Virus record (IMG/VR): IMGVR_UViG_3300027994_000012
Span: 1 to 33,622 of that record
DNA: 33,622 nt
Origin: a virus
Taxonomy: Duplodnaviria; Caudoviricetes
Direction: 5' to 3' (one strand)
The notes beneath the pieces are model-generated. The model did no database searches. It was not told where the DNA came from and saw only the letters and a program-made list of their open reading frames with translations. Of this stretch, positions 4,515-33,622 are shown in pieces. Each line of letters begins with the position of its first letter. The first letter of the stretch is position 1. The position numbers were made by a program, and so were the translations under genes.

Positions 4515-6413
4515 TTACGCATTTGCGACCATAAAGCCTAGGTCACTTGCAACTTGTTTTGCATCAAGTGGTTCAGCCATCTTTTTAATATCAATATACT
4601 GCACGACTTTTGGCGCCGACTCATACTCACCAGCCTGTATGCTTTGCGCCGTGGTGACGTTTGCATTAAAGCCAGCTTGCATCGAGCCATTAACTGCTGC
4701 CATGCCAGCCAGCGCGTCATTAGCCATGCTCGTGACCGATTTATCGACTAGGCTTGCATTGTCGGTGATACCCTTTGCGAGTCCACGGTCGAGGTCACGA
4801 CCGATGCCAGCAAATACGGTTGACGGTGAGTGAATACCAAAGAATGATTTAATGCCACCGAGTATGCTATCACCAAAGCCTTTGATTTTTCCAACCACCC
4901 AACCTGTGAGGTCTGATATACCGTTCCAAAGACCTTTGATCATATCGCCACCGATGCGAGCCAAGTTGCTTGGTGAAAGTGTATCGCCAATGACACCGAG
5001 TATTTTACCGACGGCGCCAATGATGCTGCCAAGTATTTGCGGTATTGCTTTGATCAGCGCCATGAAGACATCGATACCAGCTTTCATCATCATTTGTATG
5101 TACTGGGGGCTTGTGACCGTCTTGATGATGTTTTCAATGATAGTTGGTATTGCATCCACTAAAGCGACGATAATGACTGGTATAGCCTTTAAAATAGCCA
5201 GAAACAGCTGTATTGCACCCATGATGATCGCGGTAAGCGACTCGGGGTTTGTGAGAGCGCTGACGAGGCTATCGATAATCGTTGGTATTGCATTTACTAG
5301 GACCGTGATTATTTGCGGCAATGCTTGCACGATGCCAATGAATATCTTTACAAAGCCCTCAATGAATTGAGGCAATGCGGCAACAAGTACGCCAATGATT
5401 TGCGGCAATGCAATTACGAGCTGGTTGAGCAAGCCGACAGCGGCGCTAATGAGTGCTGGCAATAGTGTCGGCAATACCTCTGCGATCGCTGGTATGATTG
5501 CCGTTGCAACTTGACCGATGCCATCAACAATTTGTGGCAAAATAGATGCGATTTGAGGCACGGCAATTTTAATCGTGTTCAGCAAGCTCGAGATGAAACC
5601 ATCGATTGTATTGCCGCCAGACAAGAAATCGTCAAATGCCTTTTTTGTCGTGTTGATCGAGCCAGCGAGCGTATCGTTTTCTTTTGCATAGTTGCCAGCA
5701 TATTTCGCGGTTTTCTCCATGAACATTTGCTGTGCGAGTCCAACCTTTTCCTGTATAGACATCGCTTGGGTTGATTTCGTAATACCCTTTGATGCGGCAT
5801 ACGCACCGATCGCGGTATCGTTCATCGCAACACCCAAGTTATCCATCATGGTAAAGTTGCCTTTTGCCATGCCAGTAACAGCCTCGAGCGCGTCGGTCGT
5901 GCTGATACCCATGATTGATGCGATGTCAGATGCACGTTGCATTGAGTCTTGCGACATCTTCATCGACGATTGAACGTCAAAGCCAGCGCCTTGAAAAAGC
6001 GACCCCATTTTGTTGGCGCCCTGCAAAAACTCATTTTGCGAAAGACCCATATTTTTGTACGCATTGAGTGCGGTATTTTGAATGTCGGTGGCGTATTGAC
6101 CAAACACCGCCTCAGAGCCTCCGAGCTGCTGCTCAAGCTCTGCACCCGACGCGAGCATCTTGCCAGTTAATGCCGTGATGCCAGCGACGCCAGCACCGAT
6201 GCCAGCCGCAATGATTGCGCCACCAGCTTTTGCGATACCACCAAGTTTACCAATCGCGCCCTGAAAGCCACCAGAGTTTGAGTCGATCTCGTCGCCCAAG
6301 TCTTTGGTTGCTTGCGCCCCTGCGCCTTTCATGCCAGCCGCAATTTTGCTCTGAACACCCTGCATGTTTGGTGCTAGTTTGAAATATGCGGTTCCGATTG
6401 TTGCGCCAGCCAT
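4515..6413 (-). CDS. Tape measure protein (632 aa)
   Basis: IGTAYFKLAP start, ELEQQLGGSEAVFG, NFTMMDNLG, amphipathic LP-I repeats, FFGIHSPSTVF C-terminal motif. Confidence 0.93.
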   Translation of the reverse strand: MAGATIGTAYFKLAPNMQGVQSKIAAGMKGAGAQATKDLGDEIDSNSGGFQGAIGKLGGIAKAGGAIIAAGIGAGVAGITALTGKMLASGAELEQQLGGSEAVFGQYATDIQNTALNAYKNMGLSQNEFLQGANKMGSLFQGAGFDVQSSMKMSQDSMQRASDIASIMGISTTDALEAVTGMAKGNFTMMDNLGVAMNDTAIGAYAASKGITKSTQAMSIQEKVGLAQQMFMEKTAKYAGNYAKENDTLAGSINTTKKAFDDFLSGGNTIDGFISSLLNTIKIAVPQIASILPQIVDGIGQVATAIIPAIAEVLPTLLPALISAAVGLLNQLVIALPQIIGVLVAALPQFIEGFVKIFIGIVQALPQIITVLVNAIPTIIDSLVSALTNPESLTAIIMGAIQLFLAILKAIPVIIVALVDAIPTIIENIIKTVTSPQYIQMMMKAGIDVFMALIKAIPQILGSIIGAVGKILGVIGDTLSPSNLARIGGDMIKGLWNGISDLTGWVVGKIKGFGDSILGGIKSFFGIHSPSTVFAGIGRDLDRGLAKGITDNASLVDKSVTSMANDALAGMAAVNGSMQAGFNANVTTAQSIQAGEYESAPKVVQYIDIKKMAEPLDAKQVASDLGFMVANA

Positions 6414-6441: not shown

Positions 6442-6470
6442 AACCAGTTTTACCGCAACTGTTGGCGTGC
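6442..6470 (-). repeat. 29-bp leader element, copy 1 (tape measure 5' UTR)
   Basis: Identical to 12922-12950; minus strand GCACGCCAACAGTTGCGGTAAAACTGGTT with hairpin CAGTT-GCGGTAA-AACTG. Confidence 0.95.
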
Positions 6471-6481
6471 TTTATTTGTCT

Positions 6482-6497
6482 ATATCATAGCATAAGC
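6482..6497 (-). promoter_or_regulatory. Extended -10 promoter for tape measure block
   Basis: GCTTATGCTATGATAT, identical 16-mer at 7724-7739. Confidence 0.72.
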
Positions 6498-6790
6498 TAG
6501 TTGACTTTTCCAGCATCCTTTGCTTTTGATAGTGCCAAAAATCCTATGTAATTTTGGTGAGCGTCTGAGGCTTGTACTGCGATCGTTGCGATGGCTCGTA
6601 CACCGCGTTTGATGGTGCCAACTTCCGTCGTGACTGTGAACTCTGGCGGTCGGCTCGACATGCTCGATGCCATAGACCGCGCACGGTTTGCGATCGCGTC
6701 GGCTGACGTCTTTACGGTCGGCATCGCCATGCTTGTCAACAGCTCTTCGGCTGCCGCTGTGTCGAGTACAAATGATACATCTTTCGCCAT
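6497..6790 (-). CDS. Neck/tail completion protein (HK97 gp10-like)
   Basis: 97 aa; A..IANRARS..RAIATI..LSKA pattern typical of this family; apparently leaderless. Confidence 0.6.
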   Translation of the reverse strand: MAKDVSFVLDTAAAEELLTSMAMPTVKTSADAIANRARSMASSMSSRPPEFTVTTEVGTIKRGVRAIATIAVQASDAHQNYIGFLALSKAKDAGKVN

Positions 6791-6799
6791 ATTGTTTCT

Positions 6800-6819
6800 A
6801 TTATAGCACTAGCATAAGC
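6800..6819 (-). promoter_or_regulatory. Extended -10 promoter, near-leaderless transcript
   Basis: GCTTATGCTAG-TGC-TATAAT, 9 nt before ATG 6790, no SD. Confidence 0.68.
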
Positions 6820-6958
6820 GCACTCCCCTCTTCGCCTTGGGTGTCGCTTGATTTTTAGCTCTAAGGTGTTAGAGTAGTGGTTTTGGGCGGGGTAGGGGAG
6901 TGGTAAAATAACAGGGGTCGCACCCCTGTTAAATATCTTGTCATTTTTTACAACGCCA

Positions 6959-7357
6959 CTAAACGCGCTTTTTGGCAAGTATCAGCTTAATGTCGTCGAC
7001 GTCGTGAGCCTCAATATCTTTATTCATTTGTTGCTCAAGCTGCAAGTCGCGCATGAACTCTGGCACAAATGGTTTCGGTGCATTGAGTGGGTGCTTTTTC
7101 TGTGCATCCTTTGTGCTTTGCCACGCGATAACATTGAGTAAATACACCATTTGATTTTGCAAGACTTCTTGCCAGCCCCATGTGTTCGCTGGCTGCAATC
7201 GCTTATATATTCGGCTACCTGATGGCAACTGGAAAAGCAACCGCGCTGCCTTGTCCGACTTTATTTGCGCAATATCAAGATGGTAATACTCGTGAAAATC
7301 TGCCTCGATTTCGTCAAAATACTGTCGGCGTAATTTGGCGAGGGCTAGTCTTTTGGG
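6959..7357 (-). CDS. Tail assembly chaperone, -1 frameshift extension (GT-like, DUF5361-like)
   Basis: The -1 frame from the slippery site is open: RLALAKLRRQYFDEIEADFHEYYHLD..AARLLFQLPSGSRIY; fusion about 243 aa. Confidence 0.8.
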   Translation of the reverse strand, partial: PKRLALAKLRRQYFDEIEADFHEYYHLDIAQIKSDKAARLLFQLPSGSRIYKRLQPANTWGWQEVLQNQMVYLLNVIAWQSTKDAQKKHPLNAPKPFVPEFMRDLQLEQQMNKDIEAHDVDDIKLILAKKRV

Positions 7358-7689
7358 CTAAATTGCGCAATGACGGCGTTGTATACAGCCGTAAGTTTTG
7401 ATGCACGGAAACGTGGGCGATAACCTTTTTTGCCCTTGTGATCTTCGGCATCTTTTTTAATGAAATGTTGAGCCAATTTATTGTACTCTTCATCAGAAAG
7501 CAAGTGGTGCAAAAGTGGCACGATTGCCGACACGCGTGATTTATCTTCGATCTGGTGGATAATATCGAGAGCGTCGACGTCATCCATTAAGTCGGTATCG
7601 CAATAAAACTCATAGTCATCGACTTTGATTAGTTTTAGCTCTGCATTTTCGTCGGCGGTTGATGCTGCCTGTTCGTCGGGTTGTGCCAT
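7345..7689 (-). CDS. Tail assembly chaperone (G-like)
   Basis: Downstream of tail tube; acidic 114 aa; ends in C CCA AAA slippery heptamer; GAAATGGAG SD. Confidence 0.82.
   Translation of the reverse strand: MAQPDEQAASTADENAELKLIKVDDYEFYCDTDLMDDVDALDIIHQIEDKSRVSAIVPLLHHLLSDEEYNKLAQHFIKKDAEDHKGKKGYRPRFRASKLTAVYNAVIAQFSPKD
7351..7357 (-). other. Programmed -1 ribosomal frameshift site CCCAAAA
   Basis: X XXY YYZ heptamer in correct phase near the chaperone stop. Confidence 0.8.
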
Positions 7690-7723
7690 TTTTGGTTACT
7701 CCATTTCTAATATTGTTGTACTA

Positions 7724-7739
7724 ATATCATAGCATAAGC
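7724..7739 (-). promoter_or_regulatory. Extended -10 promoter for chaperone gene
   Basis: GCTTATGCTATGATAT just downstream of the tail-tube terminator. Confidence 0.72.
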
Positions 7740-7748
7740 GCGGCAAAC

Positions 7749-7780
7749 AAAAACCCCCGACAGGTGCCATCGGGGGTTTT
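7749..7780 (-). terminator. Intrinsic terminator after tail tube gene
   Basis: AAAACCCCCGA-N9-TCGGGGGTTTT inverted repeat with T tracts. Confidence 0.85.
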
Positions 7781-7796
7781 ATTTTTGTTGGACCGA

Positions 7797-8363
7797 TTAC
7801 GATGCAATAGATGCAAAGTATTCAGCGTGAGTGCTGGTGTCGGTGTCTGGGTACGCTTTGAGCTGTACAGGATATGTAACAGCCTCAGAGTTGACGTAAG
7901 AGATTTCACCACTACGATCAACAAACTTACCGTGAGGCACGACCACACGCTTGATACGACCGCCAGTGAGTACGACTTCGGCGACAAACACAACTTCGTC
8001 AAGTTCAGCTGGTTTTACCTTGATCGCGGTGATATTACCCTCACCATCAACAGTGACGTTATCCTCACCGTAATACAGGCGCATTGAGTGCTGGTTCACT
8101 TCAAGCATGTTGAAAGTAAACATTTCAGCAAACGATGTTTGACCTGATAGGACCTCTTGACCTGACCAGTCGTTTACACTCTCGGTGTCTGTTTCAGTAG
8201 CGTTGACGAGTCCATCTTCGCTAATGTAACCGACATTACGAAACGCGGCGTCGAGATCGCTTGTCGCGTTCGTTGGTACTGCTGTACCCTTTGGTGCATA
8301 AAAAAGCGCACCAGTTGCTTTTGGTTTACCAAAAGATACGTTTTGGGCGTTGTTTGGTTCCAC
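7797..8363 (-). CDS. Major tail (tube) protein, 188 aa
   Basis: GTG start at 8363 with GGAG SD; NVSFGKPK..GALFYAPKGT..GYISEDGL..AYPD motifs of r1t-type tail tubes; ends ..SIAS. Confidence 0.92.
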   Translation of the reverse strand: MEPNNAQNVSFGKPKATGALFYAPKGTAVPTNATSDLDAAFRNVGYISEDGLVNATETDTESVNDWSGQEVLSGQTSFAEMFTFNMLEVNQHSMRLYYGEDNVTVDGEGNITAIKVKPAELDEVVFVAEVVLTGGRIKRVVVPHGKFVDRSGEISYVNSEAVTYPVQLKAYPDTDTSTHAEYFASIAS

Positions 8364-8426
8364 TATATTTTTTCTCCGTTTTGGATGCTGACACAACAAT
8401 CAAATATGAAAGCTCTGTTTGAATAA

Positions 8427-8440
8427 ATTATATCACAAGC
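8427..8440 (-). promoter_or_regulatory. Extended -10 promoter for tail tube gene
   Basis: GCTTG-TGA-TATAAT overlapping the upstream stop codon. Confidence 0.68.
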
Positions 8441-9266
8441 GTATTAAGCCGTCACTACCACAACCAATGCCAATACCCAATAGTAAATTGACACTACATG
8501 ATGGGGGTTGCACGCCAGTGCCGCTATTGCCACCGCTGCTCGAGCCACCCGACGTATTGCCGCTGTTTGAATTGCCACCGTTGTTCGATGGCGTTTGGCT
8601 CGTATTATTATTGGTGATCGGCACGCTTGGCACCGCGAGGCTGTTGTTTTGTGGGGCGTTGATGTTGCCCCCTGCATCGGCACGCTCTTGTCGCGCACTC
8701 TCGAGCTGTTGCTCTAAATCTTTAATGCGGCTGTCGACGTCTTGCGGCTGGCTGTATATGCGGTATCGGTTGCTCGTTTTGCATTGCTCTTTTTCATATC
8801 CATATTTGACGGTGAAACGCACACAAAAGCCCATCTCGTATGTACCGACGTTGTGCTTGAAATCAGATGCGCGTATGACTTTGTTTTCACACTCGTTTTG
8901 AATGGTGCCGCCAATGTCACGGCTGTACACTTGAGCCTTGCTCTCTTCGGGCTTGTCGGCATTTGCAATAATGTAAATACTCAAGTCACCATCGTACTGA
9001 ATATTGCTCACACGATCACGGCAAACTTTGAAATACACATCTTCGTTTTCTCGCGCATTTTGTACACTAAACTCGGTATATTTTAAGAAATTGTCAGCTG
9101 GCGCGTCACGATAGCTTTTTTGGTCAATTAGTATTGCCACCTGCGACAATATGAAAGCAAAAATGATTACAGGTACCAGTTTTATCATAACGGCTCTGAA
9201 AATGCCGTATATGCGTGCTAGGCGCAATTGTGCTGTTTCTGATAGTGTTACGCGTGGTATTTTCAT
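8433..9266 (-). CDS. Membrane-anchored protein (TM, Cys-containing domain, coiled coil, G/S/N-rich linker)
   Basis: 277 aa; hydrophobic LVPVIIFAFILSQVAILI; six Cys; low-complexity C-terminal linker. Confidence 0.75.
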   Translation of the reverse strand: MKIPRVTLSETAQLRLARIYGIFRAVMIKLVPVIIFAFILSQVAILIDQKSYRDAPADNFLKYTEFSVQNARENEDVYFKVCRDRVSNIQYDGDLSIYIIANADKPEESKAQVYSRDIGGTIQNECENKVIRASDFKHNVGTYEMGFCVRFTVKYGYEKEQCKTSNRYRIYSQPQDVDSRIKDLEQQLESARQERADAGGNINAPQNNSLAVPSVPITNNNTSQTPSNNGGNSNSGNTSGGSSSGGNSGTGVQPPSCSVNLLLGIGIGCGSDGLIRL

Positions 9267-9268
9267 GA

Positions 9269-9526
9269 TTACTTTTTCCTGCCTGTGAAAAACGCTTTAA
9301 TTAGCTCGATAAATTGCTCGGGTGACAAGCCGATCGCAACGCCCATCAAGCCAGCTGGTATCCATACTGGTATGGCGGTTTCGCTCTTGACTAATTGGCT
9401 TACGATCACAATTGCGACAACACCAATAATAGCAACAATTTGCAAGATGCGTGCAAAATTATCAACACGCTCTTGTTGCTGCTCTATGATCTGCTGCTTA
9501 TTTTGTTTTTTTGGCTTTGCCGTCAT
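9269..9526 (-). CDS. Two-TM holin-like membrane protein
   Basis: 85 aa, two hydrophobic segments, basic termini. Confidence 0.6.
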   Translation of the reverse strand: MTAKPKKQNKQQIIEQQQERVDNFARILQIVAIIGVVAIVIVSQLVKSETAIPVWIPAGLMGVAIGLSPEQFIELIKAFFTGRKK

Positions 9527-9620
9527 GCTTTCTTACCCACATCCACATTTCATATTTTGTAACCAGACCACATATGTAGCCTAGTGCAAAAGCGAGTAAT
9601 ATAAAAAGCATATCGTTCAT
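9498..9620 (-). CDS. Small single-TM protein (40 aa)
   Basis: Below ORF-track cutoff; MNDMLFILLAFALGYICGLVTKYEMWMWVRKHDGKAKKTK. Confidence 0.5.
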   Translation of the reverse strand: MNDMLFILLAFALGYICGLVTKYEMWMWVRKHDGKAKKTK

Positions 9621-9679
9621 ACTCTCACCCTACACGCTTTTGCTTATTGTGGCTGTATATATTCTCACACATATGAGGT

Positions 9680-9892
9680 CTATTTTTCTAGGTTTACGCC
9701 GTACATTGCGGCAATTGATGGGTTGTCGACAAAGTACGCCAGAGCTTTTTTACGAGCCTCTGGCACGGTCTTTGCCTCAATATCCAATACCAAGTTTAGA
9801 GAGTCAGTAAAATCAAAACGTATGATTGAGCTGTCTTTTAAATTATCAGCTTTTGCGGTTTTGACTGTTTCTTGTAATTCTTTAAGTTTCAT
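9680..9892 (-). CDS. Hypothetical protein (70 aa)
   Basis: ATG 9892 preceded by AAATGGAG. Confidence 0.65.
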   Translation of the reverse strand: MKLKELQETVKTAKADNLKDSSIIRFDFTDSLNLVLDIEAKTVPEARKKALAYFVDNPSIAAMYGVNLEK

Positions 9893-9911
9893 ATCATTAC
9901 TCCATTTACTT

Positions 9912-11165
9912 TTATAGATACGCCGATCGAGCAAAGATCAGAGTTGGCATCAAATCATTACCTGTTGAGTTGTAAAATGCGATCTGCGTGTTTCCAGCTT
10001 GGTTACATTTCATCAATAGGTAAAAGATCGTGTCAGCGGTGAGCGTCTTTGTCTTTTTCGGGTTCTTGTGAACTGGTGCCATGACTTCGGTTGCCGATGT
10101 ATATTCAATAGCGTTGTAATCGGTATCGGTGACAGAGTTTGTCGATGTACTCAGTGTGCTATATGACCAACAGACAGGTGCGCTACCGCGTACAGTCCAT
10201 GGGTTAGCCTCATAGCCCATTTCCCATTTACCACGAGGTATAGTGGCTGTGATGCCGCCGATATTATACCAAGTGCTTGCCGCTGGCGATGCTTGCGTAA
10301 GCGTTGCCGCGTATGTATACCTGAGTGTGTATTTATCTGGGTCAGAGTCAAAGCCAGTCGGTCGAGGGTGCAAGCTAAATACTGGCGATGAGATCGTTTG
10401 GTTTACGAGTGTAAAGTCGCTGTTCAAGAAAACAAATATTTGAGTTGATGTGACATCGTGAATGATGCCTTGTTTCGTACCGCCAGTTGTTTGGCTGAAT
10501 TGTACACGCGCACCTTTTGGCAAATAGCTTGTCAGATCAGTGGTGGTGTTAATGACCGCCATTTTTGTCGTGCTGTTGTATGCACTAAATGATAGCGTCG
10601 CAAGTGCGCTCAGATCGAGCCAGTCGTTTTGGAAACTTCGACGCTGCGCCGCTGTTAAGTTTGGCGCCAACAGACTTCGGCGATCGGTGAATGTCATACC
10701 GCTGTTATTGGTCGCATTTTGTGGCACGAAAACATCCCACAATACCATGTACGGCTTACCAGCTCCGATGGCTGCCGCGATTGCCGAGCCAGTCGGTGCG
10801 GCTGGTGATGCCGCTGCCGTGCCAGCGACTACAACAAACTTTAGAATGTCATTAGTGTTGTCGGTGACTGAGGTTGTTGGCGATACTGCCGTGTCGATGT
10901 ATGCGATGACGCTATCGATGCGATTGAATGATGCGCTTGCGGCTGGTACTGTGACGCTCTCGGTTGCATCTGTTGCAATGCGTCGTGCGATGGTGTCACT
11001 AATAAGACCAGCACCAGTCGAGATATTGAGGTTCATGCCACTACCAGCGCTTAATACAAAGCTCGTTAAACTGGCAACACATGAGCCATACGCCCACTTT
11101 TCTAATTCTGTATATGCGGCTGCACTGTGCTTGCCGCCCTGCATGTTAAATACTTTTTTACTCAC
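9912..11165 (-). CDS. Tail fibre/receptor-binding-like structural protein
   Basis: N-terminal GMNLNISTG..RIDSVIAYID..VVAGT..FTDRR segment typical of siphophage baseplate-attached fibres; S/T-rich beta C-terminus. Confidence 0.65.
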   Translation of the reverse strand: MSKKVFNMQGGKHSAAAYTELEKWAYGSCVASLTSFVLSAGSGMNLNISTGAGLISDTIARRIATDATESVTVPAASASFNRIDSVIAYIDTAVSPTTSVTDNTNDILKFVVVAGTAAASPAAPTGSAIAAAIGAGKPYMVLWDVFVPQNATNNSGMTFTDRRSLLAPNLTAAQRRSFQNDWLDLSALATLSFSAYNSTTKMAVINTTTDLTSYLPKGARVQFSQTTGGTKQGIIHDVTSTQIFVFLNSDFTLVNQTISSPVFSLHPRPTGFDSDPDKYTLRYTYAATLTQASPAASTWYNIGGITATIPRGKWEMGYEANPWTVRGSAPVCWSYSTLSTSTNSVTDTDYNAIEYTSATEVMAPVHKNPKKTKTLTADTIFYLLMKCNQAGNTQIAFYNSTGNDLMPTLIFARSAYL

Positions 11166-11575
11166 GAGTACAGCTCCTTTCGAGTTGTTGAAATACTATT
11201 TAATGATTGACTACCCGACAGCCCAATTTCAGCGAGATCAGATTTTTTAAACCATAAATCGCCGCTCGGGTTCGTGAATGTAATGTTTTGCGAGTACGGA
11301 CCAGCTGTAATTTGTTCGCTGTTCACTGGCGCTTGATCGATCGGCGTACTGATCGCTCGCTTGACCGCCTCCATGATGACATACTGCACATTTGATTTAT
11401 AAATCTCGCTTGCGCCGACCTTTTCATCGAGATTGATGCCGATTTTTTCAGCCATGCCGCGCAAACGGTTGCTCGCTACTAGCAATAAAGTTGTTGCTCG
11501 AGTTTTTTCGGTATCAGTAAGTGGGCGCCAAAACGCCTCAAGCTCTGCAACGGTGACAAGTGTTTCTAAAGCCAC
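11162..11575 (-). CDS. Head-tail adaptor (Gp19/Gp15/Gp42-like)
   Basis: ELEAFWRPLTDTEKTRATTLL..TAGPYSQ..NPSGDLW..IGL motifs. Confidence 0.85.
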   Translation of the reverse strand: MALETLVTVAELEAFWRPLTDTEKTRATTLLLVASNRLRGMAEKIGINLDEKVGASEIYKSNVQYVIMEAVKRAISTPIDQAPVNSEQITAGPYSQNITFTNPSGDLWFKKSDLAEIGLSGSQSLNSISTTRKELYS

Positions 11576-11577
11576 GG

Positions 11578-12906
11578 TTACGCACCTCCCTGCATAAAGC
11601 TATTAGTTTTCGCCGCCGCACGAGCCGCCATAAGCTTTTCAGCCTGTCGTATGTTAATACCGAGCATCTGGTAAACCTCTGGCGTACCCATAAGCTCTGG
11701 CAATGCCGTGTTGAGCTTACCGATCGCGTCACCAGCGGCGCCGATGTCGACCTGAAATATTGACTCCCATGCTGGTACGATTTCCTTGAGCGCTGTTGGC
11801 ACTTCGGCGATTTGCTGCGTTTCCATGTACAGGGTTGTGACAAGTTGCTTGATCTGCTCGCCCATTTCTTTTTGGCTATTCTTTGCCTCGAGCAATAGGT
11901 CGTCAGACATCGCGCTCAAGCTTTCAGCACTGGTCGGGTTGCCAGTTTCATAACCAAGGTTGCGTAATGTGAGTGCTGTTTCTGCACAAAAATCTCGTGC
12001 TTTGTCTTTCTTCGCACCTATAAAGCCATCGATACTCATTTGCTGCAATTGGTCGACCTTTGGCGCGTCGCCATCTTCGTCTTTAGTGATCGCCCACACT
12101 AAACCGATGGCGCTGTCGAGGTTTGAGTCTTTTTCGGCACCTTGGGCAAGACCTGTGATGTATCGTTGCGGCAATGCGTAAAACTCTTCGGCAATTTCTT
12201 CGCGCACCTTGAGTCGTGACACCTCTTGAATAATGCGGCGCACCGTATTTGTAATGCGACCTTTACCGAGTGGTCGATTTGCACTCGAGCCGTGGGTAAT
12301 TCTGTGTAGTTGAGTTCGTTTTGATGAATTAAAGTATATGTCGCACAATGTACGATTTTCAAAAACAGCCGTGAACTCTGGTAAGAATAGTACAAAATCA
12401 AGAGCCGTCAGCACTTGCTTGTATCGCCCATCGTTTGGCAAGCCCCAACGAGTGATAGCCAGACCAGATGAAAGCAAACCAGTCGTCATATCGACGGTGC
12501 CAGTTGCCTCGAGTGCGGTAAACGGTACGATTACCTTTTTGCCATTACCATTGTCTGAAACAGCTGCAAATGCGACACCGACAATGAACGCATCCTCTTT
12601 GACGTTGTTTATCGTAACGGTGCCATTGATGTCGTCGAGCATTGCATTGATGCCAGCTTTATCATTTGCAAAGCCGTCAAACACGACACGATCTGAAAGC
12701 GTATTGACTGCACGTTTAGCCCAACCGATGCCAGGCTGGTGTTTTTTCATCTTACGAGGTGTCGAGATGCCAAAATCATGAACATCGTTGTCGGCGTCGT
12801 AATAATCGTACTTGTCTTGTACGTTCGGCGCACGAGTACCCAACTTATTGAGTAGGTCTTTGGCTGTGCTTTCCGCGAGATCGATTATCAGTTCGTCGGT
12901 GTTCAT
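11578..12906 (-). CDS. Portal protein (SPP1 gp6-like, r1t type)
   Basis: GWAKRAVNTLSDRVVFDGF, RPLGKGRI, AEEFYALPQRYITG, NPTSAESL; start set to ATG 12906 with AAAGGA SD. Confidence 0.92.
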   Translation of the reverse strand: MNTDELIIDLAESTAKDLLNKLGTRAPNVQDKYDYYDADNDVHDFGISTPRKMKKHQPGIGWAKRAVNTLSDRVVFDGFANDKAGINAMLDDINGTVTINNVKEDAFIVGVAFAAVSDNGNGKKVIVPFTALEATGTVDMTTGLLSSGLAITRWGLPNDGRYKQVLTALDFVLFLPEFTAVFENRTLCDIYFNSSKRTQLHRITHGSSANRPLGKGRITNTVRRIIQEVSRLKVREEIAEEFYALPQRYITGLAQGAEKDSNLDSAIGLVWAITKDEDGDAPKVDQLQQMSIDGFIGAKKDKARDFCAETALTLRNLGYETGNPTSAESLSAMSDDLLLEAKNSQKEMGEQIKQLVTTLYMETQQIAEVPTALKEIVPAWESIFQVDIGAAGDAIGKLNTALPELMGTPEVYQMLGINIRQAEKLMAARAAAKTNSFMQGGA

Positions 12907-12921
12907 GGTTTCCTTTTTCAA

Positions 12922-12950
12922 AACCAGTTTTACCGCAACTGTTGGCGTGC
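12922..12950 (-). repeat. 29-bp leader element, copy 2 (portal 5' UTR)
   Basis: Identical to 6442-6470. Confidence 0.95.
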
Positions 12951-12967
12951 CTTTGATATTTGATTAT

Positions 12968-12976
12968 ATTATAGCA
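12968..12976 (-). promoter_or_regulatory. Extended -10 promoter for portal block
   Basis: TGC-TATAAT upstream of the 29-bp element. Confidence 0.68.
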
Positions 12977-14572: not shown

Positions 14573-15487
14573 TTAAGATGCTGGGGTTGCTTTGACGATT
14601 GCGAAAGCGCGTGGGTCGACAAAGGCAAAACCGAGGTAAGCCTCTGCGCGAATAGCGATTTCGTTAAGTTCCTGCAAGTCACCCATGCCGTCTGGGTTAC
14701 CGTACTCAATTGTCTTGAGTGGCACTGTACGAGCAACACCCCATACAAATGCGCGGAAATCACCCATGATAGCCTTTACGAGTGGCGTATCAAGCTCTTG
14801 GCGACCACTTACTGTGTCGCTAGATGCTGCACGCAAACCTTGGAAACTTTCGACGTTGAAACCAAAGCCAAGCTCTGGGTACTTTTGGCGATCGTTGCCA
14901 TCTTCAACCTGTGCAAGCTGACCAGCAAACTGTGGATCAAACGCAATCGCTGTCGCGTTGTAACCCTCTGTCTGCAAAGCTGTTGCCATTGCACGCACGT
15001 TAGCATCTTTGGCTGATGTTTCAGTGATAACGTGACCCTCTGGCAAGAAACCATCTTTATCAAGGTATTCAGACACGAGGTTTGAAACCTGACCAGTGAT
15101 AGGGTTTACACCGTGAATTGCAATGAGGTCGAGCGCTCGAGAAAGACCCTCACCGACGCGAGCAACGAGTGCATCGACAAGACCGATTTGGTAATCTTCA
15201 TCTTCGTACTTAACTTCATCACTAAATCGATAGGTGATTTGGACCTTGTAAGTTTTGGCTGTTGCCTTGGTTGGCTTACCGTCCATTGAAACCTTTTGAC
15301 CACTCTCACCAACCAGTTGAGCTTTCGCTGCATCTAGGAAAGTAAAGATGTTGGTATCACCGACTTTGATTTCTGGGTCGGCTGCGGCGAGCTGTGATAG
15401 CACACCTGTTTTTACTGCCTTGCGCCAAATACCTTTTTTCTGGTGGGCTGCAAGGTCAAGTTCGGATGTATTTAAAACCTCTGACAC
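14573..15487 (-). CDS. Major capsid protein (HK97 fold)
   Basis: AQLVGESGQK, RFSDEV, RALDLIAIHG, IMGDF, DLQELNEIAIRAEAYLGF..AFA motifs; AAAGGAG SD; ends ..TPAS. Confidence 0.95.
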   Translation of the reverse strand: MSEVLNTSELDLAAHQKKGIWRKAVKTGVLSQLAAADPEIKVGDTNIFTFLDAAKAQLVGESGQKVSMDGKPTKATAKTYKVQITYRFSDEVKYEDEDYQIGLVDALVARVGEGLSRALDLIAIHGVNPITGQVSNLVSEYLDKDGFLPEGHVITETSAKDANVRAMATALQTEGYNATAIAFDPQFAGQLAQVEDGNDRQKYPELGFGFNVESFQGLRAASSDTVSGRQELDTPLVKAIMGDFRAFVWGVARTVPLKTIEYGNPDGMGDLQELNEIAIRAEAYLGFAFVDPRAFAIVKATPAS

Positions 15488-15523: not shown

Positions 15524-15997
15524 TCAGGCTTTTTTACGACCAAATAATTCACCAGCGATACGCTTGTTATCAGACTTTTTCTCGTCTGGTTTGTCTTTCT
15601 TATCGATGTGTACGCCTGTTGGTTTGACGCCGCTTGCCAGCTTTTCAGCTCGTTTGCGCATCTCATCCGCGTTTTCACCTGTGACAAACTCTGCCATATC
15701 GTCTTTGAGTCCAAACTCGTTGATGATCTTTACCTTGTCGACTTCGAGTTGAGCGCCAGTCAATTTCTTAACTAGATCGTCTTTTTCCGTGGTTGCTGCC
15801 GTGAGCTTTGTTTCAAAGTCTGTGACTTTCGTTTTCAGATCGTCATAATCTGCAAACTTTGATCGCTCATTTTCACGCGCACGCTCGAGCCTCTTGGTTA
15901 GCCATGGCACATCGCCAGCTATCTCATCAATTTGCTCTTCGCTAAATGAGTCAACTTTCTTGAACTCATCGCCCTCTTTGGTAAAATACTCAGCCAT
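15524..15997 (-). CDS. Capsid scaffolding protein
   Basis: Directly upstream of capsid; KRLERARE..KFADYDDLK..TGENADEMRKRAEKL. Confidence 0.88.
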   Translation of the reverse strand: MAEYFTKEGDEFKKVDSFSEEQIDEIAGDVPWLTKRLERARENERSKFADYDDLKTKVTDFETKLTAATTEKDDLVKKLTGAQLEVDKVKIINEFGLKDDMAEFVTGENADEMRKRAEKLASGVKPTGVHIDKKDKPDEKKSDNKRIAGELFGRKKA

Positions 15998-16048
15998 AAT
16001 TTCCGTTTTTCCTTTCCAGACCGTCGCCTGTGTTTCTGACTTACTTAA

Positions 16049-16062
16049 ATAATAGCATAAAC
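16049..16062 (-). promoter_or_regulatory. Extended -10 promoter for scaffold-capsid
   Basis: GTTTA-TGC-TATTAT. Confidence 0.62.
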
Positions 16063-17061: not shown

Positions 17062-18450
17062 ATGCATGTTGTAATCAATGGCAAACGCTACGTTGAACAA
17101 ACAAATAATAAAAACTTTTCAATAGGCATTGGTATTACTACCCACAACCGCAACCAACTGGCGGCTGAAACCTATGCCAAGATAGCGGCACTGACACCTG
17201 ATGCAAAGATCGTGGTGGTGGATGACGCGAGCAAGACACCAGTAAAGATTGATGGTGATGTGTACCGCTTTGATAGTAACGTCGGCATTGCTCGAGCCAA
17301 AAATAAATGTCTTGAGTTGCTTGCCGATTGCGACCATATCTTTCTATTTGATGACGATACATACCCTATTGCCGCCAACTGGTGGGTGCCATACGTTGAG
17401 AGTAGCGAGAGCCACTTGATGTACTGCTTTAAAGATTGGGCTGATGGTACGCCAGTGGGTGATGATCACATTGTATACGAGGATGCAAAGCACGTTGCTC
17501 ATAGCCATGCGAGGGGCTGCATGTTATACATCAAGCACCGCGTACTCGACGTTGTGGGCGGCATGGATGTGCGTTTTGGCAAGGCAATGGATGAGCATGG
17601 TGATTGGTCAAACCGTATTCACAATGCTGGGCTTACCACATTTAAACATATGGATGTCATAGCAAGCGACCTGCTCATATACAGCATGGACCAACACAAA
17701 GAGGTGTCGAGTAGCATATCACCAGCCGATCGCACTGATGGCATCGTGAGAAACCATGCATTGCTAAAAGAGCGTACTGACTCAACAGAGTATGCACCAT
17801 ACGGCAAGGATGTCGTCATTGCATGTTACTTTGCCAATGTAATGGACCCTCAACGCAATCAAGCGTGGTTTGCCAACGAAAAAGAGATCGATAAGCTCAA
17901 GCAATCAGTTGAGTCAAAGGGCTATGAGTTCGTACTAATACACAACTGCTTTGACAAGCCAAACCGCGTCACCATATCAACCACACCGTACTTTGAACGC
18001 TGGCTCAAAGAGTGGCAATACCTGCGTGATCATCCCGAGATAGCTAATGTATTTGTTGTCGATGCCACCGACGTCGACATGGTGAACAATCCATTTACTC
18101 ACATCAAGCCAAACACGCTATATGTTGGCGATGAGCCGAGCCAAAAGCTTAATAATCAATGGATGCTCACACGGCATCTTGAGCCGTCGGTCAATAGGTT
18201 TTTACGAGAGAATAGAGATAAACCATTACTTAATTGCGGCGTTGTTGGTGGTGATCGGCAGATCATCATGGACCTATGCAAAGACATGTTTGAATATCAT
18301 TTTGAACACCGCCAAGACCTCACCGAGATGGGTATATTCAACAAGCTGGTGCATGGCAAATACGCCGACCGCGTTGAATATGGGCGGCATGTAACATCAA
18401 TATTTAAGAAATACGAGGTGGTAACTGATGCTTGGTTCAGACACAAATAA
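17062..18450 (+). CDS. Two-domain glycosyltransferase (GT2/GT-A N-terminal domain plus second GT-like domain)
   Basis: IGITTHNR..VVVDDAS..GIARAKNKCL..FLFDDD..GGMD; C-terminal VVDATDV..LYVGDE..LLNCGVVGG. Confidence 0.88.
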   Translation: MHVVINGKRYVEQTNNKNFSIGIGITTHNRNQLAAETYAKIAALTPDAKIVVVDDASKTPVKIDGDVYRFDSNVGIARAKNKCLELLADCDHIFLFDDDTYPIAANWWVPYVESSESHLMYCFKDWADGTPVGDDHIVYEDAKHVAHSHARGCMLYIKHRVLDVVGGMDVRFGKAMDEHGDWSNRIHNAGLTTFKHMDVIASDLLIYSMDQHKEVSSSISPADRTDGIVRNHALLKERTDSTEYAPYGKDVVIACYFANVMDPQRNQAWFANEKEIDKLKQSVESKGYEFVLIHNCFDKPNRVTISTTPYFERWLKEWQYLRDHPEIANVFVVDATDVDMVNNPFTHIKPNTLYVGDEPSQKLNNQWMLTRHLEPSVNRFLRENRDKPLLNCGVVGGDRQIIMDLCKDMFEYHFEHRQDLTEMGIFNKLVHGKYADRVEYGRHVTSIFKKYEVVTDAWFRHK

Positions 18451-19090
18451 AACGATCAATGCGTGGTGGTGGCGTACTAATAAAAAGCCATATAACTTTG
18501 GCGATGAGCTGGGTGCGCTGATACTCACAAAGCTGGGTTATAAAGTGCGCCGCGTGGCGCTATCGAAAGCCGACGTTGTGATCATCGGCACTATACTTGA
18601 TATAGCAGAAACAGAAAACAAAAACGTCACTGTATTGGGCGCTGGCTCTGGCTATACCCATGACAGTGAACACAATTTTAATACACTTGCCGTGAGAGGT
18701 CAGCTTACACAAAACAATCTCAAGAGCAATGCAATATTGGGCGATCTCGGTTTATTGGCATCGAGAATATGGACCAAGGCGCCAGCACGCTACAATATCG
18801 GCGTTGTACGGCATTATGTCGACAAAGATGATTACCCATTCGCTGACATCATAATCGACGCAACAGAGTCGCCAGAAACGGTCATTGAGAAAATATCGAG
18901 CTGTCGTGTCATCCTATCAAGCTCATTGCACGGTTTGATCATTGCCGACTCATACGGCATACCAAATATGCGCATTGCTCGTGATGACGTCATTAGCGGC
19001 AACTGGAAATGGATGGACTATAAAACAGCTTTCATAAAGCCACTCAATGAGATACAAGATGACTTGCTCGAGGCTATTGATAAATTATGA
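18428..19090 (+). CDS. Polysaccharide pyruvyltransferase family protein
   Basis: NFGDEL, GTIL, AVRGQLT, GDLGLL, SSSLHGLIIADSYGIP motifs. Confidence 0.85.
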   Translation: MLGSDTNKTINAWWWRTNKKPYNFGDELGALILTKLGYKVRRVALSKADVVIIGTILDIAETENKNVTVLGAGSGYTHDSEHNFNTLAVRGQLTQNNLKSNAILGDLGLLASRIWTKAPARYNIGVVRHYVDKDDYPFADIIIDATESPETVIEKISSCRVILSSSLHGLIIADSYGIPNMRIARDDVISGNWKWMDYKTAFIKPLNEIQDDLLEAIDKL

Positions 19091-19284
19091 TCTATCCCGA
19101 TTATGTCGACGCTTACCCAAGAAACGCCGTTGTACTCAATATAGGATATGAGCAACGCACCAGAGCAGAGAAACGCCAACCGTCAAATAAAGGCGTGCCA
19201 TTCAGCAAGAGCAGTAAGCGTCAATTACCAAAACGCCGTAAATACCACAAAGGCGGTCATAACAAAGATCGGTACCACAAATGA
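19087..19284 (+). CDS. Small basic hypothetical protein (65 aa)
   Basis: ATGA overlaps with both neighbours; K/R/H-rich C-terminus. Confidence 0.6.
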   Translation: MIYPDYVDAYPRNAVVLNIGYEQRTRAEKRQPSNKGVPFSKSSKRQLPKRRKYHKGGHNKDRYHK

Positions 19285-19919
19285 AAATATCAATCGCAAT
19301 CATGGCGCACCCGAGTCGGACCGCTCAAGCAAATGCACTGTATAAAAAAGTTATTCAATACCCTTTTGCTGCGCCTCAAATAATATGGGATGAGCAAAAC
19401 AGTGAGTGGCATACAGGTCGTCGAGCATTGGCTTATGGCATCGGCAAGGCTGATGTGCATGTCGTACTACAAGATGACGCGATAATCAATGAACACTTTT
19501 TCACTAACCTCACCCGAGCATTGAGAGCGGCACCATTGAGAACATGTGTATCGCTTTATACTGGCACTGTGCGACCATTCAACGATCGAGTGACAAGAGC
19601 TGTCGCAAGTGCGCCAGATGGCTCATGGTTGAGCGGCTACTTGCTGTTTTGGGGCGTTGCCATTGCATTACCGTCGGACCATATAGAGCCATTGCTCGAG
19701 TTTTGTGATGCTGATGATGACCCATATGATACACGCATCGGCAAGTTTTATTTTGGTAATACGTTGCGAGTGCTATATACAAACCCCTCTCTTGTCGACC
19801 ATGATGACGATATTGAAACAATAGTCGGTCAACGTGCCGATTTACCGCAAGGGCGGCGTGTGGCTCGTAATATGATCAATAAAGACCATAACTGGACCGA
19901 TCAAATAACTGCAATTTAA
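19281..19919 (+). CDS. Phage glycosyltransferase-like protein (GT-A fold)
   Basis: IAIMAHPSR..VVLQDDA..WGVA..PSLVDHDD motifs as in actinophage glycosyltransferases. Confidence 0.75.
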   Translation: MKISIAIMAHPSRTAQANALYKKVIQYPFAAPQIIWDEQNSEWHTGRRALAYGIGKADVHVVLQDDAIINEHFFTNLTRALRAAPLRTCVSLYTGTVRPFNDRVTRAVASAPDGSWLSGYLLFWGVAIALPSDHIEPLLEFCDADDDPYDTRIGKFYFGNTLRVLYTNPSLVDHDDDIETIVGQRADLPQGRRVARNMINKDHNWTDQITAI

Positions 19920-29221: not shown

Positions 29222-29327
29222 TGTGCAAAAACCTGTGCAAAACGTGTGAATAACCCTCAATTATTAGCAGATCATCTATATAGTATGTAAATCTGTTTCA
29301 CTGAAACAATCTATATAGTATGTAAAT
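29222..29327. other. Putative replication origin
   Basis: Three co-oriented TTWTNCACA DnaA boxes (29222-30, 29234-42, 29245-53, minus strand); 19-bp direct repeats ATCTATATAGTATGTAAAT (29274-92, 29309-27) flanking TGTTTCA-C-TGAAACA. Confidence 0.7.
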
Positions 29328-29349
29328 GTCGGCTCTGACCTCTGTAAAT

Positions 29350-29694: not shown

Positions 29695-31149
29695 CTATAC
29701 CATGATGCGCTGGGTGCTACTAGAGTTTGACTTGTCTTTCTTAAATCGGACCGCCCCATAATACGCAAATGCTGCCGCCTCGGTCGGGTCGCTTTGAATA
29801 TCATTATTCATTGCTGCATACCCAAACATGCCGTCACGCCCAATATCACGCTTTTTGACTGTCTTTACCGACACGTTGAGTGCTGGCTGATTGTAGTGCG
29901 TAAGCAACCGCTGCTCGATCGCTGTTTGAAACGATGAGTATGCTGCACCAGCCTCTTTCACATTTGGCGTTAATATCTTTTTACTGATCTTTGGGTCGGA
30001 CCGCGTAAGCTCTTCGACCAACAACTGTGTACCAGCCGCGCCATCGATAATGATTTTGTTGCATTTGCGCCATCGCTCTATTAGCCACATTGATAACCAT
30101 GAAATGCCAGCGTTCATTTGGCGGCGCTCAATTATCTCGACATGCACTCTTGCATCTGGCATTAGTACGCCCACGGCAAGCGATACAGCTGATCGATCGG
30201 GTGCAAACTTCACGGCGTATACTATGTTTGGCTCTGGCGGCAATACCACGCCATCGACAGCGAGCGGCAACCATTCATCGTCGCTGATAGCACGCAAGCT
30301 CTCGACACCTGCATACCACCCAAGGCGCATTTTATTAAAGCTATCGGTTGCCATTGTTGCCGACTCATTACGGACCGCTGAGATCATCAAGAAATAGCCA
30401 AGCGATGGGTTGGTGAAATACCATGCCTCTTCGTCTGTGACGTCTGTGATCGCCTCAACTGACCATTCTTGCCAGCAATAGCTTTCAGCCTTGCCAGTGA
30501 GTACGCTGTTGCGTGTGCGCGTCCATACGGTACCGCTCGAGCCAGCTGTTGGCGGCGTTCCTGCTCGTATGGTTTGGTGGTTTTGGCTTTTACCAGATGC
30601 GAGCGTTGGTAATAGAGCCTCTTGCTGCGCGTCGGTTTCTTCTTGCGCCTCGTCGATGATCAATGTATCGTTGGTGCTACCAAGACCGTTGGTGCGCGTT
30701 CGGGTACGAAATACGCATCGACCGCGATTGCGCAACTCAACATAATCGAGTGACTTTGGCTCGTTGTCAAACTCATCAGTAAGCATGTCGCGCAACTCTT
30801 CGTCGGCATCATAGAAAAAGCGCATCACGCGTCGCTTGATTTCTTTTACGGTATTGTCAGATTGAGCGGTATAAACTAGCGCCTCACCCAAAAATACCAT
30901 GCCACCAATAATGCGCACGATGATCAACTCAGATTTTCCGTTTTGGCGCGGCACCGATAGCCCACACTCTGGGTTTACCCATTTATCAAACTCATCGGTC
31001 GCCATCCATCGATACAAAATTGCACGCTGCCACGGCAAAAGCTTAATGCCATACGCCTCACAAAGCTCGATCGTTTTATCGGCAAGTTCAATATCACCAT
31101 TATTGTAAATATCGATGCGTGGTTTCTGACTGCCGTATCGTCGTGCCAT
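29695..31149 (-). CDS. terL: Terminase large subunit
   Basis: LLPWQ adenine motif, VPRQNGKS Walker A, LIIDEAQE Walker B, GTPP, NPSLG, C-terminal nuclease. Confidence 0.96.
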   Translation of the reverse strand: MARRYGSQKPRIDIYNNGDIELADKTIELCEAYGIKLLPWQRAILYRWMATDEFDKWVNPECGLSVPRQNGKSELIIVRIIGGMVFLGEALVYTAQSDNTVKEIKRRVMRFFYDADEELRDMLTDEFDNEPKSLDYVELRNRGRCVFRTRTRTNGLGSTNDTLIIDEAQEETDAQQEALLPTLASGKSQNHQTIRAGTPPTAGSSGTVWTRTRNSVLTGKAESYCWQEWSVEAITDVTDEEAWYFTNPSLGYFLMISAVRNESATMATDSFNKMRLGWYAGVESLRAISDDEWLPLAVDGVVLPPEPNIVYAVKFAPDRSAVSLAVGVLMPDARVHVEIIERRQMNAGISWLSMWLIERWRKCNKIIIDGAAGTQLLVEELTRSDPKISKKILTPNVKEAGAAYSSFQTAIEQRLLTHYNQPALNVSVKTVKKRDIGRDGMFGYAAMNNDIQSDPTEAAAFAYYGAVRFKKDKSNSSSTQRIMV

Positions 31150-31937
31150 TATGCTACTTTCTCCGTATCATCAATTGTTACCCGAGTTTTAAAACTTGTT
31201 TTGCGAGAGCCAGCCGATTTACCAGCGGTTGCCTTTGACTTGCTTGCATCATATTCACCGAGCAATTGACCGAGCTTGGTTTCTTTCTTTGGACCTTGCC
31301 GCTTTTCAAAGTCTGCAATCTGCGTCATCACTTCCGTCATTTGTTGCGCCAGAGATGCCGTATCGCGGTTACCAGCGCCTTTGTCGAGTTTTGCGGCTAG
31401 ACTATCGCGTATTGCTTTCAAAACGCCTAGGCGGTCATTTTTCGCTGCGAGCTGACCAATACTTTCTTTTGGCTTGGCGCCGTCGGTCGCTGTCGTCAAA
31501 CCAGCCTTGTGTACTTTATCCATTCGATATGGCGATGCAATTACATCGTGCCACCACGCAAGCGCTGTGTACGCCTCAGTTGGTAAGAAATCAAGACCAG
31601 TGACCGCAAGCTGTTTAATAGCGTTTGGTGTGAGCGTTTTGAAATAGTTGAGCCACTGATCATACCCATCGAGTTTTGGTATCTTAATTTGTAATCGCTC
31701 TTCATTCCATAATTGCGACAGCTCTTTAAACTTATCTTGCGACATTTTAACAAAATAATCATCAAACATTTTTGGCGTGATGACAGGCTTTTTCGGTGCG
31801 GCTTTTTTGCGAGTCGTTTTCTTTTTTGCTGGCGCTGCTTTCTGAACAACTTTTTTACTCACCGCCTTTGCTTTTGGTGGTGATTTCTCTTTTGGTTTTG
31901 ATACCTTTGCCGTCGACGCTGTTTTCTTGGCAACCAT
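31149..31937 (-). CDS. Terminase small subunit-like protein with long K/A/P-rich N-terminal extension
   Basis: Coupled to terL; C-terminal DRLGVLKAIRDSLAAKLD..RDTASLAQQMTEVMTQI resembles r1t-type TerS. Confidence 0.68.
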   Translation of the reverse strand: MVAKKTASTAKVSKPKEKSPPKAKAVSKKVVQKAAPAKKKTTRKKAAPKKPVITPKMFDDYFVKMSQDKFKELSQLWNEERLQIKIPKLDGYDQWLNYFKTLTPNAIKQLAVTGLDFLPTEAYTALAWWHDVIASPYRMDKVHKAGLTTATDGAKPKESIGQLAAKNDRLGVLKAIRDSLAAKLDKGAGNRDTASLAQQMTEVMTQIADFEKRQGPKKETKLGQLLGEYDASKSKATAGKSAGSRKTSFKTRVTIDDTEKVA

Positions 31938-32202: not shown

Positions 32203-32703
32203 TTATTTTTCTTTGGGGTCAAAATGAAAACCGCAATTCGGACATTCAACGTCTTTATTTTTTGATGCCTCAAACTCAACATCTTCTTTGTCGGACCGAT
32301 CACCAGTCATCGACGGTATCTTGATGCTTTTAATTCCCCACTCTTTCAGCTCTTCGGGGTTCCATACGTTTGCAATGATGTCGTAATCCCACTCACCAGA
32401 GTGGTCATTGTCGAGCGCTATGAAACGGCGTTTTTGAGCCTCTGTAAGATTATGCACTTGCTTAACTTCGACATCTTCGTACCCAAGGTCTTTGAGCGCA
32501 TACACTCGTTGGTGACCTGCCAGAATGATCATCTTTTCATCGACGATTATTTCGCGCAATTTCTTCATATCAGGAAACTCGAGCAATGATTTTTTCAGCT
32601 CTTCATATTCCTTGCGCTTGATCTTGCGTGGGTTGATTTCGTTTTGTATTAAATCATCAAGCTTGACGATTTTAATTTCAACCGATACATCTTTCTTTGA
32701 CAT
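32203..32703 (-). CDS. ParB/Srx-like N-terminal domain protein with C-terminal Zn ribbon
   Basis: NEINPRKI..IIVDE..ILAGHQRV..IALDN..GEWD; CPNCG; ATG 32703 after AAAGGA. Confidence 0.85.
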   Translation of the reverse strand: MSKKDVSVEIKIVKLDDLIQNEINPRKIKRKEYEELKKSLLEFPDMKKLREIIVDEKMIILAGHQRVYALKDLGYEDVEVKQVHNLTEAQKRRFIALDNDHSGEWDYDIIANVWNPEELKEWGIKSIKIPSMTGDRSDKEDVEFEASKNKDVECPNCGFHFDPKEK

Positions 32704-32756
32704 CGCCGTTTTTCCTTTCTTAACCGAGTGAGTTCTCGTGTGTGCGGTATGTGGCA

Positions 32757-32773
32757 ATTATAACACCATAAGC
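32757..32773 (-). promoter_or_regulatory. Extended -10 promoter for ParB-like/terminase block
   Basis: GCTTATGG-TGT-TATAAT. Confidence 0.68.
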
Positions 32774-33239: not shown

Positions 33240-33622
33240 TTAATATCCTAATTTACGGTTTACTAATGATTGCACTTCGTCGGCATTATAGCCAGCTGCG
33301 CGCAATTTATCTGCTCGTTGAGGGTTGTTACCCCAACCACCTTGACCAGCAATGATCTCGTTGGCAATTTGGTCAGCTGATTTCTTTGAGCCGCCACCTG
33401 CGCCCAATTTGGCGTTTACTTTTGCTTGGACCGCATCAAAGTTGTAACCTGCGCGAGTCAGTCGGTCGCGGCGCTCATCGCCATTGCCCCACGCGCCAGC
33501 AATCACTTGGTTCGCTACTTCGTCATCAGACAAGCGTGCTGGTGCCGCTGGTGTGACTTTACCGTTCACAATGGCTTGTACTGCATTGTAGTCGTAACCT
33601 GCCGCTGTGAGGGCGTTTACGC
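33240..33622 (-). CDS. Endolysin, C-terminal part (CW_7-type repeats)
   Basis: In frame with 1-658 after removing the 6-nt terminal overlap; SDDEVANQVIAGAWGNGDERRDRL and SADQIANEIIAG..WGNNPQR repeats; total about 344 aa. Confidence 0.9.
   Translation of the reverse strand, partial: VNALTAAGYDYNAVQAIVNGKVTPAAPARLSDDEVANQVIAGAWGNGDERRDRLTRAGYNFDAVQAKVNAKLGAGGGSKKSADQIANEIIAGQGGWGNNPQRADKLRAAGYNADEVQSLVNRKLGY

Follow-up and report, generated by a model that had tools for sequence, protein, structure and literature searches.

Four predicted leader pseudoknots in a siphophage with shuffled structural genes: a putative translational operator of the scaffold protein

The DNA analysed here (the window) is the whole 33,622-nt sequence of IMG/VR record IMGVR_UViG_3300027994_000012, a 33.6-kb virus record of a siphophage with shuffled structural genes. 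The gene order is neck, tail terminator, scaffold, capsid, minor head, RusA, portal, adaptor, major tail, chaperones and tape measure protein (TMP), and many structural genes possess their own extended -10 box or consensus promoter. Of the 63 open reading frames (ORFs) scanned, none codes for an integrase, polymerase, helicase or sigma factor. The subject of this work is an exact 29-nt repeat in the leaders of the portal and TMP genes, which is predicted to fold into a pseudoknot and has two diverged counterparts in front of the scaffold and ParB-like genes. The relevant features, in which SD stands for the Shine-Dalgarno sequence, are the following.

4515-6413, minus strand: tape measure protein gene (PHROG 58, E 4e-54)
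6444-6468, minus strand: predicted pseudoknot copy 1, within the repeat 6442-6470; leader of the TMP-Dit-Tal genes
6484-6492, minus strand: extended -10 box of copy 1 (consensus match only)
11578-12906, minus strand: portal gene, ATG at 12906 (PHROG 104, E 2e-64)
12924-12948, minus strand: predicted pseudoknot copy 2, within the repeat 12922-12950; leader of the portal-adaptor genes
12968-12976, minus strand: extended -10 box of copy 2 (consensus match only)
14573-15487, minus strand: major capsid protein gene (PHROG 10)
15524-15997, minus strand: head scaffold gene (DUF4355/Gp46-like; PHROG 233, many homologues with PF14265), candidate binder
15857-15892, minus strand: codons of scaffold residues 36-47, Arg-rich helix, candidate RNA-binding surface
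16003-16031, minus strand: predicted pseudoknot copy 3, diverged; leader of the scaffold-major capsid genes, SD inside loop 3
16049-16057, minus strand: extended -10-like box of copy 3 (consensus match only)
29695-31149, minus strand: TerL gene, downstream of TerS
31149-31937, minus strand: TerS gene, downstream of the ParB-like gene
32203-32703, minus strand: ParB-like gene, first of the packaging cluster
32714-32739, minus strand: predicted pseudoknot copy 4, diverged; leader of the ParB-like gene, a small ORF, TerS and TerL
32757-32765, minus strand: extended -10 box of copy 4 (consensus match)

Both exact copies of the repeat (6442-6470 and 12922-12950) lie on the minus strand, and no further copy is present in the window at up to 3 mismatches. 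The 29-mer gave no matches in 100 shuffles and the expected number of chance 29-mer pairs is ~6e-9, in agreement with an earlier inspection of the DNA made without database searches (the sequence-only reading), where the match was judged to be far beyond chance. The location of the repeats between an extended -10 box and the SD of the portal and TMP genes, also noticed there, is borne out: the copies sit 15 or 19 nt past a TGnTATRAT box (6484-6492 and 12968-12976) and precede a purine-rich SD-like stretch and an ATG (6413 for TMP, 12906 for portal), and the PHROGs matches agree with the assignment of both genes. The distance from the end of the core to the ATG is 30 nt at the TMP gene and 17 nt at the portal gene, with the SD 5-9 nt downstream of the element in both leaders. 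The SD-hiding hairpin of both window copies was rejected as a switch, since only one portal leader out of 37 and three TMP leaders out of 35 form it at -4 kcal/mol or better.

A hairpin, CAGTT-GCGGTAA-AACTG, had been proposed as the fold of the repeat. By itself this 5-bp hairpin is weak (-4.4 kcal/mol, z +0.48, calculated with ViennaRNA, which models no knots), and 21 of the 76 rows of a MAFFT alignment do not form its innermost U-A pair. The element is structured, as proposed, while the conserved fold is most probably an H-type RNA pseudoknot of ~25 nt, in which the 5' CGC pairs with the GCG of the hairpin loop to give two interleaved stems (P1 and P2). Loops 1 and 2 are short and loop 3 is longer and A-rich, as expected for this type of knot. 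In general notation the knot reads AC-x-y, 0-3 nt, AC-z, y'-x'-GG, A-rich loop, z'-GG; as judged from the sequences, each stem closes with a C-G pair that has A and G as its neighbors, which makes the layout pseudo-symmetric.

The predicted fold was compared among relatives. A portal search yielded 78 IMG/VR loci with 52-97% identity, cultured phages having portals of only ~30% identity; 100 nt of upstream DNA was present for 74 portal and 53 TMP leaders, those of the window among them. Of these 127 leaders 125 contain the core ACG..ACRG..GCGG..CYGG, the two misses being a diverged copy. The variable R:Y pair of P2 is G-U in 58 portal and TMP leaders, G-C in 58 and A-U in 9, but never A-C, which points to a structure formed by the single-stranded sense strand. 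Compensatory changes are found in both stems when the 79 unique cores are anchored on the invariant letters. The two P1 pairs, each of 4-5 types, hold in 78/79 and 78/79 cores (at most 70 and 52 in shuffles), the variation coming mostly from the comparison of copies and phages, as P1 is nearly invariant within the portal and TMP set. The P2 pair holds in 72/79 cores (shuffle maximum 56); at least 5 of the misses are register slips in G-runs, and the tally for P2 of the ParB copy is forced by the anchor. In the 76-row MAFFT alignment 92% of the cells pair, versus 15-47% for slid partners; this alignment contains one row (L099) with wrong coordinates and several out-of-register rows, so that it understates the covariation of P1. 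The regular-expression tallies likewise slip register in G-runs, and in one of them 5 of 13 leaders are unanchored and two rows misread. Complementarity to the 16S rRNA end is unlikely as a general rule, the free swapping of stem pairs arguing against it.

The general pattern is found in 74/74 portal, 53/53 TMP and 39/43 scaffold leaders and in 0/399 leaders of eight other genes, for which the starts were picked automatically (shuffles 0-1.3%). When the window and 13 related records are taken together, the knot leads the portal gene 14 times, TMP 14, the ParB-like gene 14 and the scaffold gene 13 times, the last being all records that hold this gene, as the fourteenth is without the scaffold region. 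The 464 kb of these records contain 111 matches in all, of which 55 are the leaders just named; no second gene is consistently marked by the remaining 56, which are scattered. In the ParB copy P1 varies in pairs, and P2 is short and overlaps the SD. All four copies in the window begin 15-19 nt past the -10 box, and the promoter consensus suggests that they head separate transcripts. The contigs compared for signs of expression are probably DNA and uninformative in this respect; among 15 of their 22 joints, none connects the two repeats. As judged by this comparison, the element is a conserved structured cis-element of phage structural-gene leader RNA. The shared structured leader claimed by the sequence-only reading, for which absence from relatives would have been fatal, is strengthened by conservation and covariation; it has to be amended to four copies instead of two and to a pseudoknot in place of a hairpin. 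The operator suggested there would balance the initiation of heads and tails; the evidence favors a scaffold-linked control of four operons. Rfam, the other comparison envisaged there, gave no hit on the motif in the window, at the two repeat loci or at 36 further loci.

The exact identity of the two repeats has a different meaning. Identical cores within one genome are found in only 5 of 48 relatives; the exact repeat is thus a trait of the lineage of the window phage, and exact identity was rejected as the signal. An exact 27-mer scan of IMG/VR gave no matches, close kin being diverged or outside the scanned set. Stretches of at least 25 nt are shared by 7/48 same-genome pairs versus 4% of cross-genome pairs, which hints at occasional gene conversion. 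Such sharing, together with an exact 29-nt direct repeat within a shuffled gene order, is what would be seen if the element were a scar of rearrangement (the alternative offered by the sequence-only reading), a recombination site or a double-stranded DNA operator having no role as RNA. This explanation is largely refuted and we assign it very little weight: besides the rarity of identical cores, it does not account for G-U pairs without A-C or for interleaved stems with compensatory changes, the same fold is found before the scaffold genes of unshuffled phages (see below), and the shuffled order of structural genes is fixed across the 78 relatives.

The wider distribution indicates that the widespread home of the element is the scaffold gene. 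At least 137 matches were obtained when IMG/VR was scanned with a pattern, and those listed comprise 43 TMP, 36 portal and 37 scaffold leaders and 21 without assignment, several of which are scaffold-like. The fold, with swapped pairs, is present in each of the 15 scaffold loci obtained by protein similarity. In phages of Lactococcus, Streptococcus, Rothia, mycobacteria and gut bacteria the knot adjoins the ribosome site of scaffold genes of the DUF4355 type, and the hosts of knot-bearing phages span several phyla; copy 3 of the window occupies the same position, which is that expected of a scaffold operator. Among 18 cultured phages, four (r1t, Spartoi, Clyde and IPP45) match a strict pattern (shuffles 2.7%) and 12 match a relaxed one, the latter being weaker evidence because 18% of shuffles match as well. 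The scaffold leader of Str-PAP-1 is a near miss by eye, with one mismatch, and no knot is seen in the scaffold leaders of Aster, PA6 and L5. In these 18 phages the knot is absent from all 15 portal, TMP or TerS leaders compared. The strict pattern gave only two matches in GTDB, both on phage contigs; these matches, from one strict pattern, and the lack of an Rfam hit do not suggest a metabolite riboswitch.

Several gut phages have a tRNA gene just upstream of the scaffold-leader knot (L094, L097 and L130). Other H-type-like knots, recognized by eye and having no Rfam hit, lie at ~1935-1975 of the 80alpha locus (L297) and ~6688-6722 of the TP901-1 locus (L298).

In phages with the ordinary gene arrangement the knot follows a terminator-like hairpin and a U-run. 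This arrangement bears on the possibility that the element is a nut/put-like antitermination signal, which modifies RNA polymerase just past each promoter. The fixed promoter-proximal place at four operon heads would suit such a signal; in the ordinary phages, however, the knot is located downstream of the terminator and against the SD, that is, on the wrong side, and this explanation is highly improbable.

The scaffold protein itself provides a candidate ligand. Its most conserved residues, R36, L37, R39, R45 and K47, lie on a predicted helix with the Arg-rich motif RLxRERxK. The model of the scaffold consists of long helices (predicted local distance difference test, pLDDT, 77; predicted template modelling score, pTM, 0.39) and has no fold match in the PDB. 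All cultured phages with the knot have the Arg-rich helix. The Aster scaffold is of the same type without the RERxK segment, and the scaffolds of PA6 and L5 are without the motif. An out-of-sample test was made with the best 78 of 286 relatives of the Aster scaffold, fetched by protein only: the knot is present in 26/26 helix-positive loci and in 0/52 helix-negative loci. Fifty of these 52 belong to the Aster clade, where the terminator runs directly into the SD; the scaffolds of L382 and L383 have a decayed helix, and their leaders have no knot once the start is corrected. A tree of 41 scaffolds indicates two separate losses, the Aster clade lying within RNA-positive branches that are well supported; the tree omits PA6, L5, 80alpha, TP901-1 and near-duplicates, and the row of the window is on a long branch. 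The loss accompanies a change of 6-7 residues in the scaffold. Among 10 further actinophage-like loci, all three with the Arg helix have the knot, and the seven with another helix type have other leaders, three of which pass the relaxed pattern. In one locus (L304, 549-1484, minus strand) the scaffold is fused behind a P-loop ATPase-like domain and the knot is kept at the start of the fused ORF. An actinophage scaffold subfamily (L393-L398) with a KALxAEREARK helix has a conserved leader of its own, with a repeated GCGCGA(C/T)GC hairpin unit.

Two other explanations have to be weighed against these observations. It is conceivable, though unlikely, that the knot is a ligand-free 5' stabilizer or translation enhancer, which near the 5' end or past a terminator protects the message or keeps the SD open. 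The uniform 15-19 nt spacing from the -10 box and the position after a terminator-like hairpin and U-run in ordinary phages are in favor of this. It leaves unexplained, however, why the knot is lost together with the scaffold helix, why an unpaired A and G are invariant at the ends of both stems and why the SD lies inside the scaffold and ParB copies, and the major tail leader has no knot. Somewhat less credible still is an operator read by another protein, either of the phage (the major capsid or the ParB-like protein) or of the host (an RNA-binding protein). The capsid gene, too, is headed by the scaffold copy, the ParB-like gene has a copy in front of it, and conserved unpaired bases would suit any protein; yet the loss of the knot tracks the 6-7 residue change in the scaffold, the hosts span several phyla and the strict GTDB scan returned the two phage contigs only.

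The repeat is best regarded, with a probability of roughly 55%, as one of four covarying predicted pseudoknots near the 5' ends of the packaging, scaffold-capsid, portal and TMP messages that likely constitute a translational operator for the phage's own scaffold protein. Free scaffold, still unconsumed by procapsid assembly, would bind the knot through the Arg-rich helix, and in the copies with the SD inside the knot (scaffold and ParB) initiation would most likely be repressed by this binding, as in P22 autoregulation. The late operon may have broken into separately promoted units and the operator may have been redeployed as a four-operon regulon: as the structural genes are shuffled and have their own promoters, it was likely copied to three more operon heads, which would place packaging, portal and tail synthesis on one signal. 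A more ambitious version is put forward tentatively, at less than even odds: the scaffold may be a sequence-specific RNA regulator whose Arg-rich helix reads the pseudo-symmetric knot, and may serve four assembly operons (packaging, head, portal and tail) as the master regulator of their translation, in place of the single late transcript, the RNA then representing a cross-phylum class of scaffold operators.

Several points weigh against control by the scaffold protein. The stems are short (3+3 bp in the window), and the second stem of the ParB copy is of 2 bp. Across leaders the end of the TMP copy is 19-33 nt away from the start, at the edge of the ribosome footprint. The generic pattern was devised after the portal and TMP set and 15 scaffold loci, and the counts for these are partly circular. 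The leaders of 80alpha and TP901-1 appear by eye to contain a knot of other sequence, outside the patterns used, and Rando14 has the helix and no clear knot. The co-loss comprises only two independent events and is suggestive, no proof; the conserved arginines could serve protein contacts. The reason for scaffold control of TMP or terminase is not obvious.

The closest known system is the scaffold of phage P22, the N-terminus of which was implicated in translational autoregulation according to a preprint (bioRxiv 10.1101/2022.12.13.520362). By analogy, operator behavior of the P22 type is the best reading of the present element: as with P22 gp8, the gene is that of a scaffold and its own product is the candidate controller of its translation. 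Unlike P22 gp8, the scaffold is of a different family, and the element, with its clear consensus, stands before the portal, TMP and terminase-cluster genes as well; a defined pseudoknot operator for P22 was not found described in the sources consulted. In 80alpha the loss of the scaffold or of its N-terminus lowers the amount of capsid protein, with P22-like regulation being one option named by the authors (PMC5744158). The leader of T4/T2 gene 32 contains a small two-stem pseudoknot which nucleates autogenous repression by gp32 (PMC3014915). It resembles the present element as a two-stem knot upstream of a phage start codon and differs in that the ligand and gene are those of a protein that binds single-stranded DNA and the knot is ~67 nt upstream, with an A/U-rich tract. 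T4 RegA is an example of a single phage protein with many phage mRNAs as targets, on whose initiation regions it acts; its sites, as described in the same source, lack structure and are rich in A/U, and, rather than being an assembly protein, RegA is a dedicated repressor (PMC3014915).

RNA motifs in front of phage head genes also had to be considered. GP20 is a scaffold-type protein. GP20-a (RF02991), GP20-b (RF03003) and six further GP20 candidate structured RNAs are listed as putative cis-regulatory RNAs directly upstream of this phage head gene by Fremin et al. 2023 (PMC10690425). The element differs from them in that the downstream genes are DUF4355-like scaffold, portal, TMP and ParB-like genes, not GP20. 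RF03003 had no matches at E<=10 in the scan of the window and its four copies, the single match of RF02991 (14.5 bits, below the cut-off of 47.2) is inside the ParB-like gene, and neither model matched the four copies or any of the 36 other loci scanned. In that work six candidates (DNAVirus_416, _516, _4171, _5212, _5752 and _6820) are reported within 25 nt upstream of DUF4355 genes, as is the knot described here; DNAVirus_516, of 68 nt, occurs in Streptococcus, Lactococcus and Enterococcus phages with a terminator and, compared by description only, resembles the leaders of r1t and IPP45 (PMC10690425). The scaffold form may already have been catalogued there without a name or model, no pseudoknot, ligand or multi-operon use being proposed for these candidates in the text available. 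The main text of Weinberg 2017 (PMC5737381) has no mention of GP20 or scaffold in its accessible part, and that of Fremin 2021 (PMC8040213) none of DUF4355 or scaffold. The literature search found no description of the knot; the supplement of Weinberg 2017 and the alignments of Fremin 2023, which are beyond this search, may hold it. What is new here is a consensus that extends across phyla, the loss of the knot along with the scaffold helix and the deployment at four operons.

Little is understood of the way in which tailed phages adjust the proportions of their scaffold, capsid, portal and tail parts, and scaffold autoregulation is known mainly from P22. The present system offers a 25-nt RNA, a 12-residue candidate helix, natural double-loss variants and cultured phages (r1t, TM4 and Spartoi), so that the question is directly testable. 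If the proposed role of the scaffold is true, an assembly intermediate would signal to several operons via a portable RNA operator; this would show how structural genes can be shuffled while stoichiometry is kept and would represent a very small protein-responsive translation switch.

Some other features of the window deserve mention. The major tail leader (~8380-8425, minus strand) contains another conserved element, seen by eye as a CAGAGC ... GYTGTGY hairpin with a G-G mismatch, which follows its own extended -10 box and is kept in relatives. The neck/connector-type genes at 16787 and 6790 (both minus strand) start only 6-9 nt past an extended -10 box, also in relatives, and are thus likely expressed from leaderless mRNA. 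An opposite-strand cassette (17062-19919, plus strand), shared with relatives, includes two glycosyltransferase genes and a pyruvyl-transferase-like gene. The endolysin gene with CW_7 repeats spans the ends of the record (2-658 and 33240-33620, minus strand) and is one ORF in relatives; the genome is thus circularly permuted. Finally, the gap after TerL harbors a direct repeat of ~19 nt with the copies 35 nt apart (29274-29330), also present in the relative L252, which is possibly an operator or an origin.

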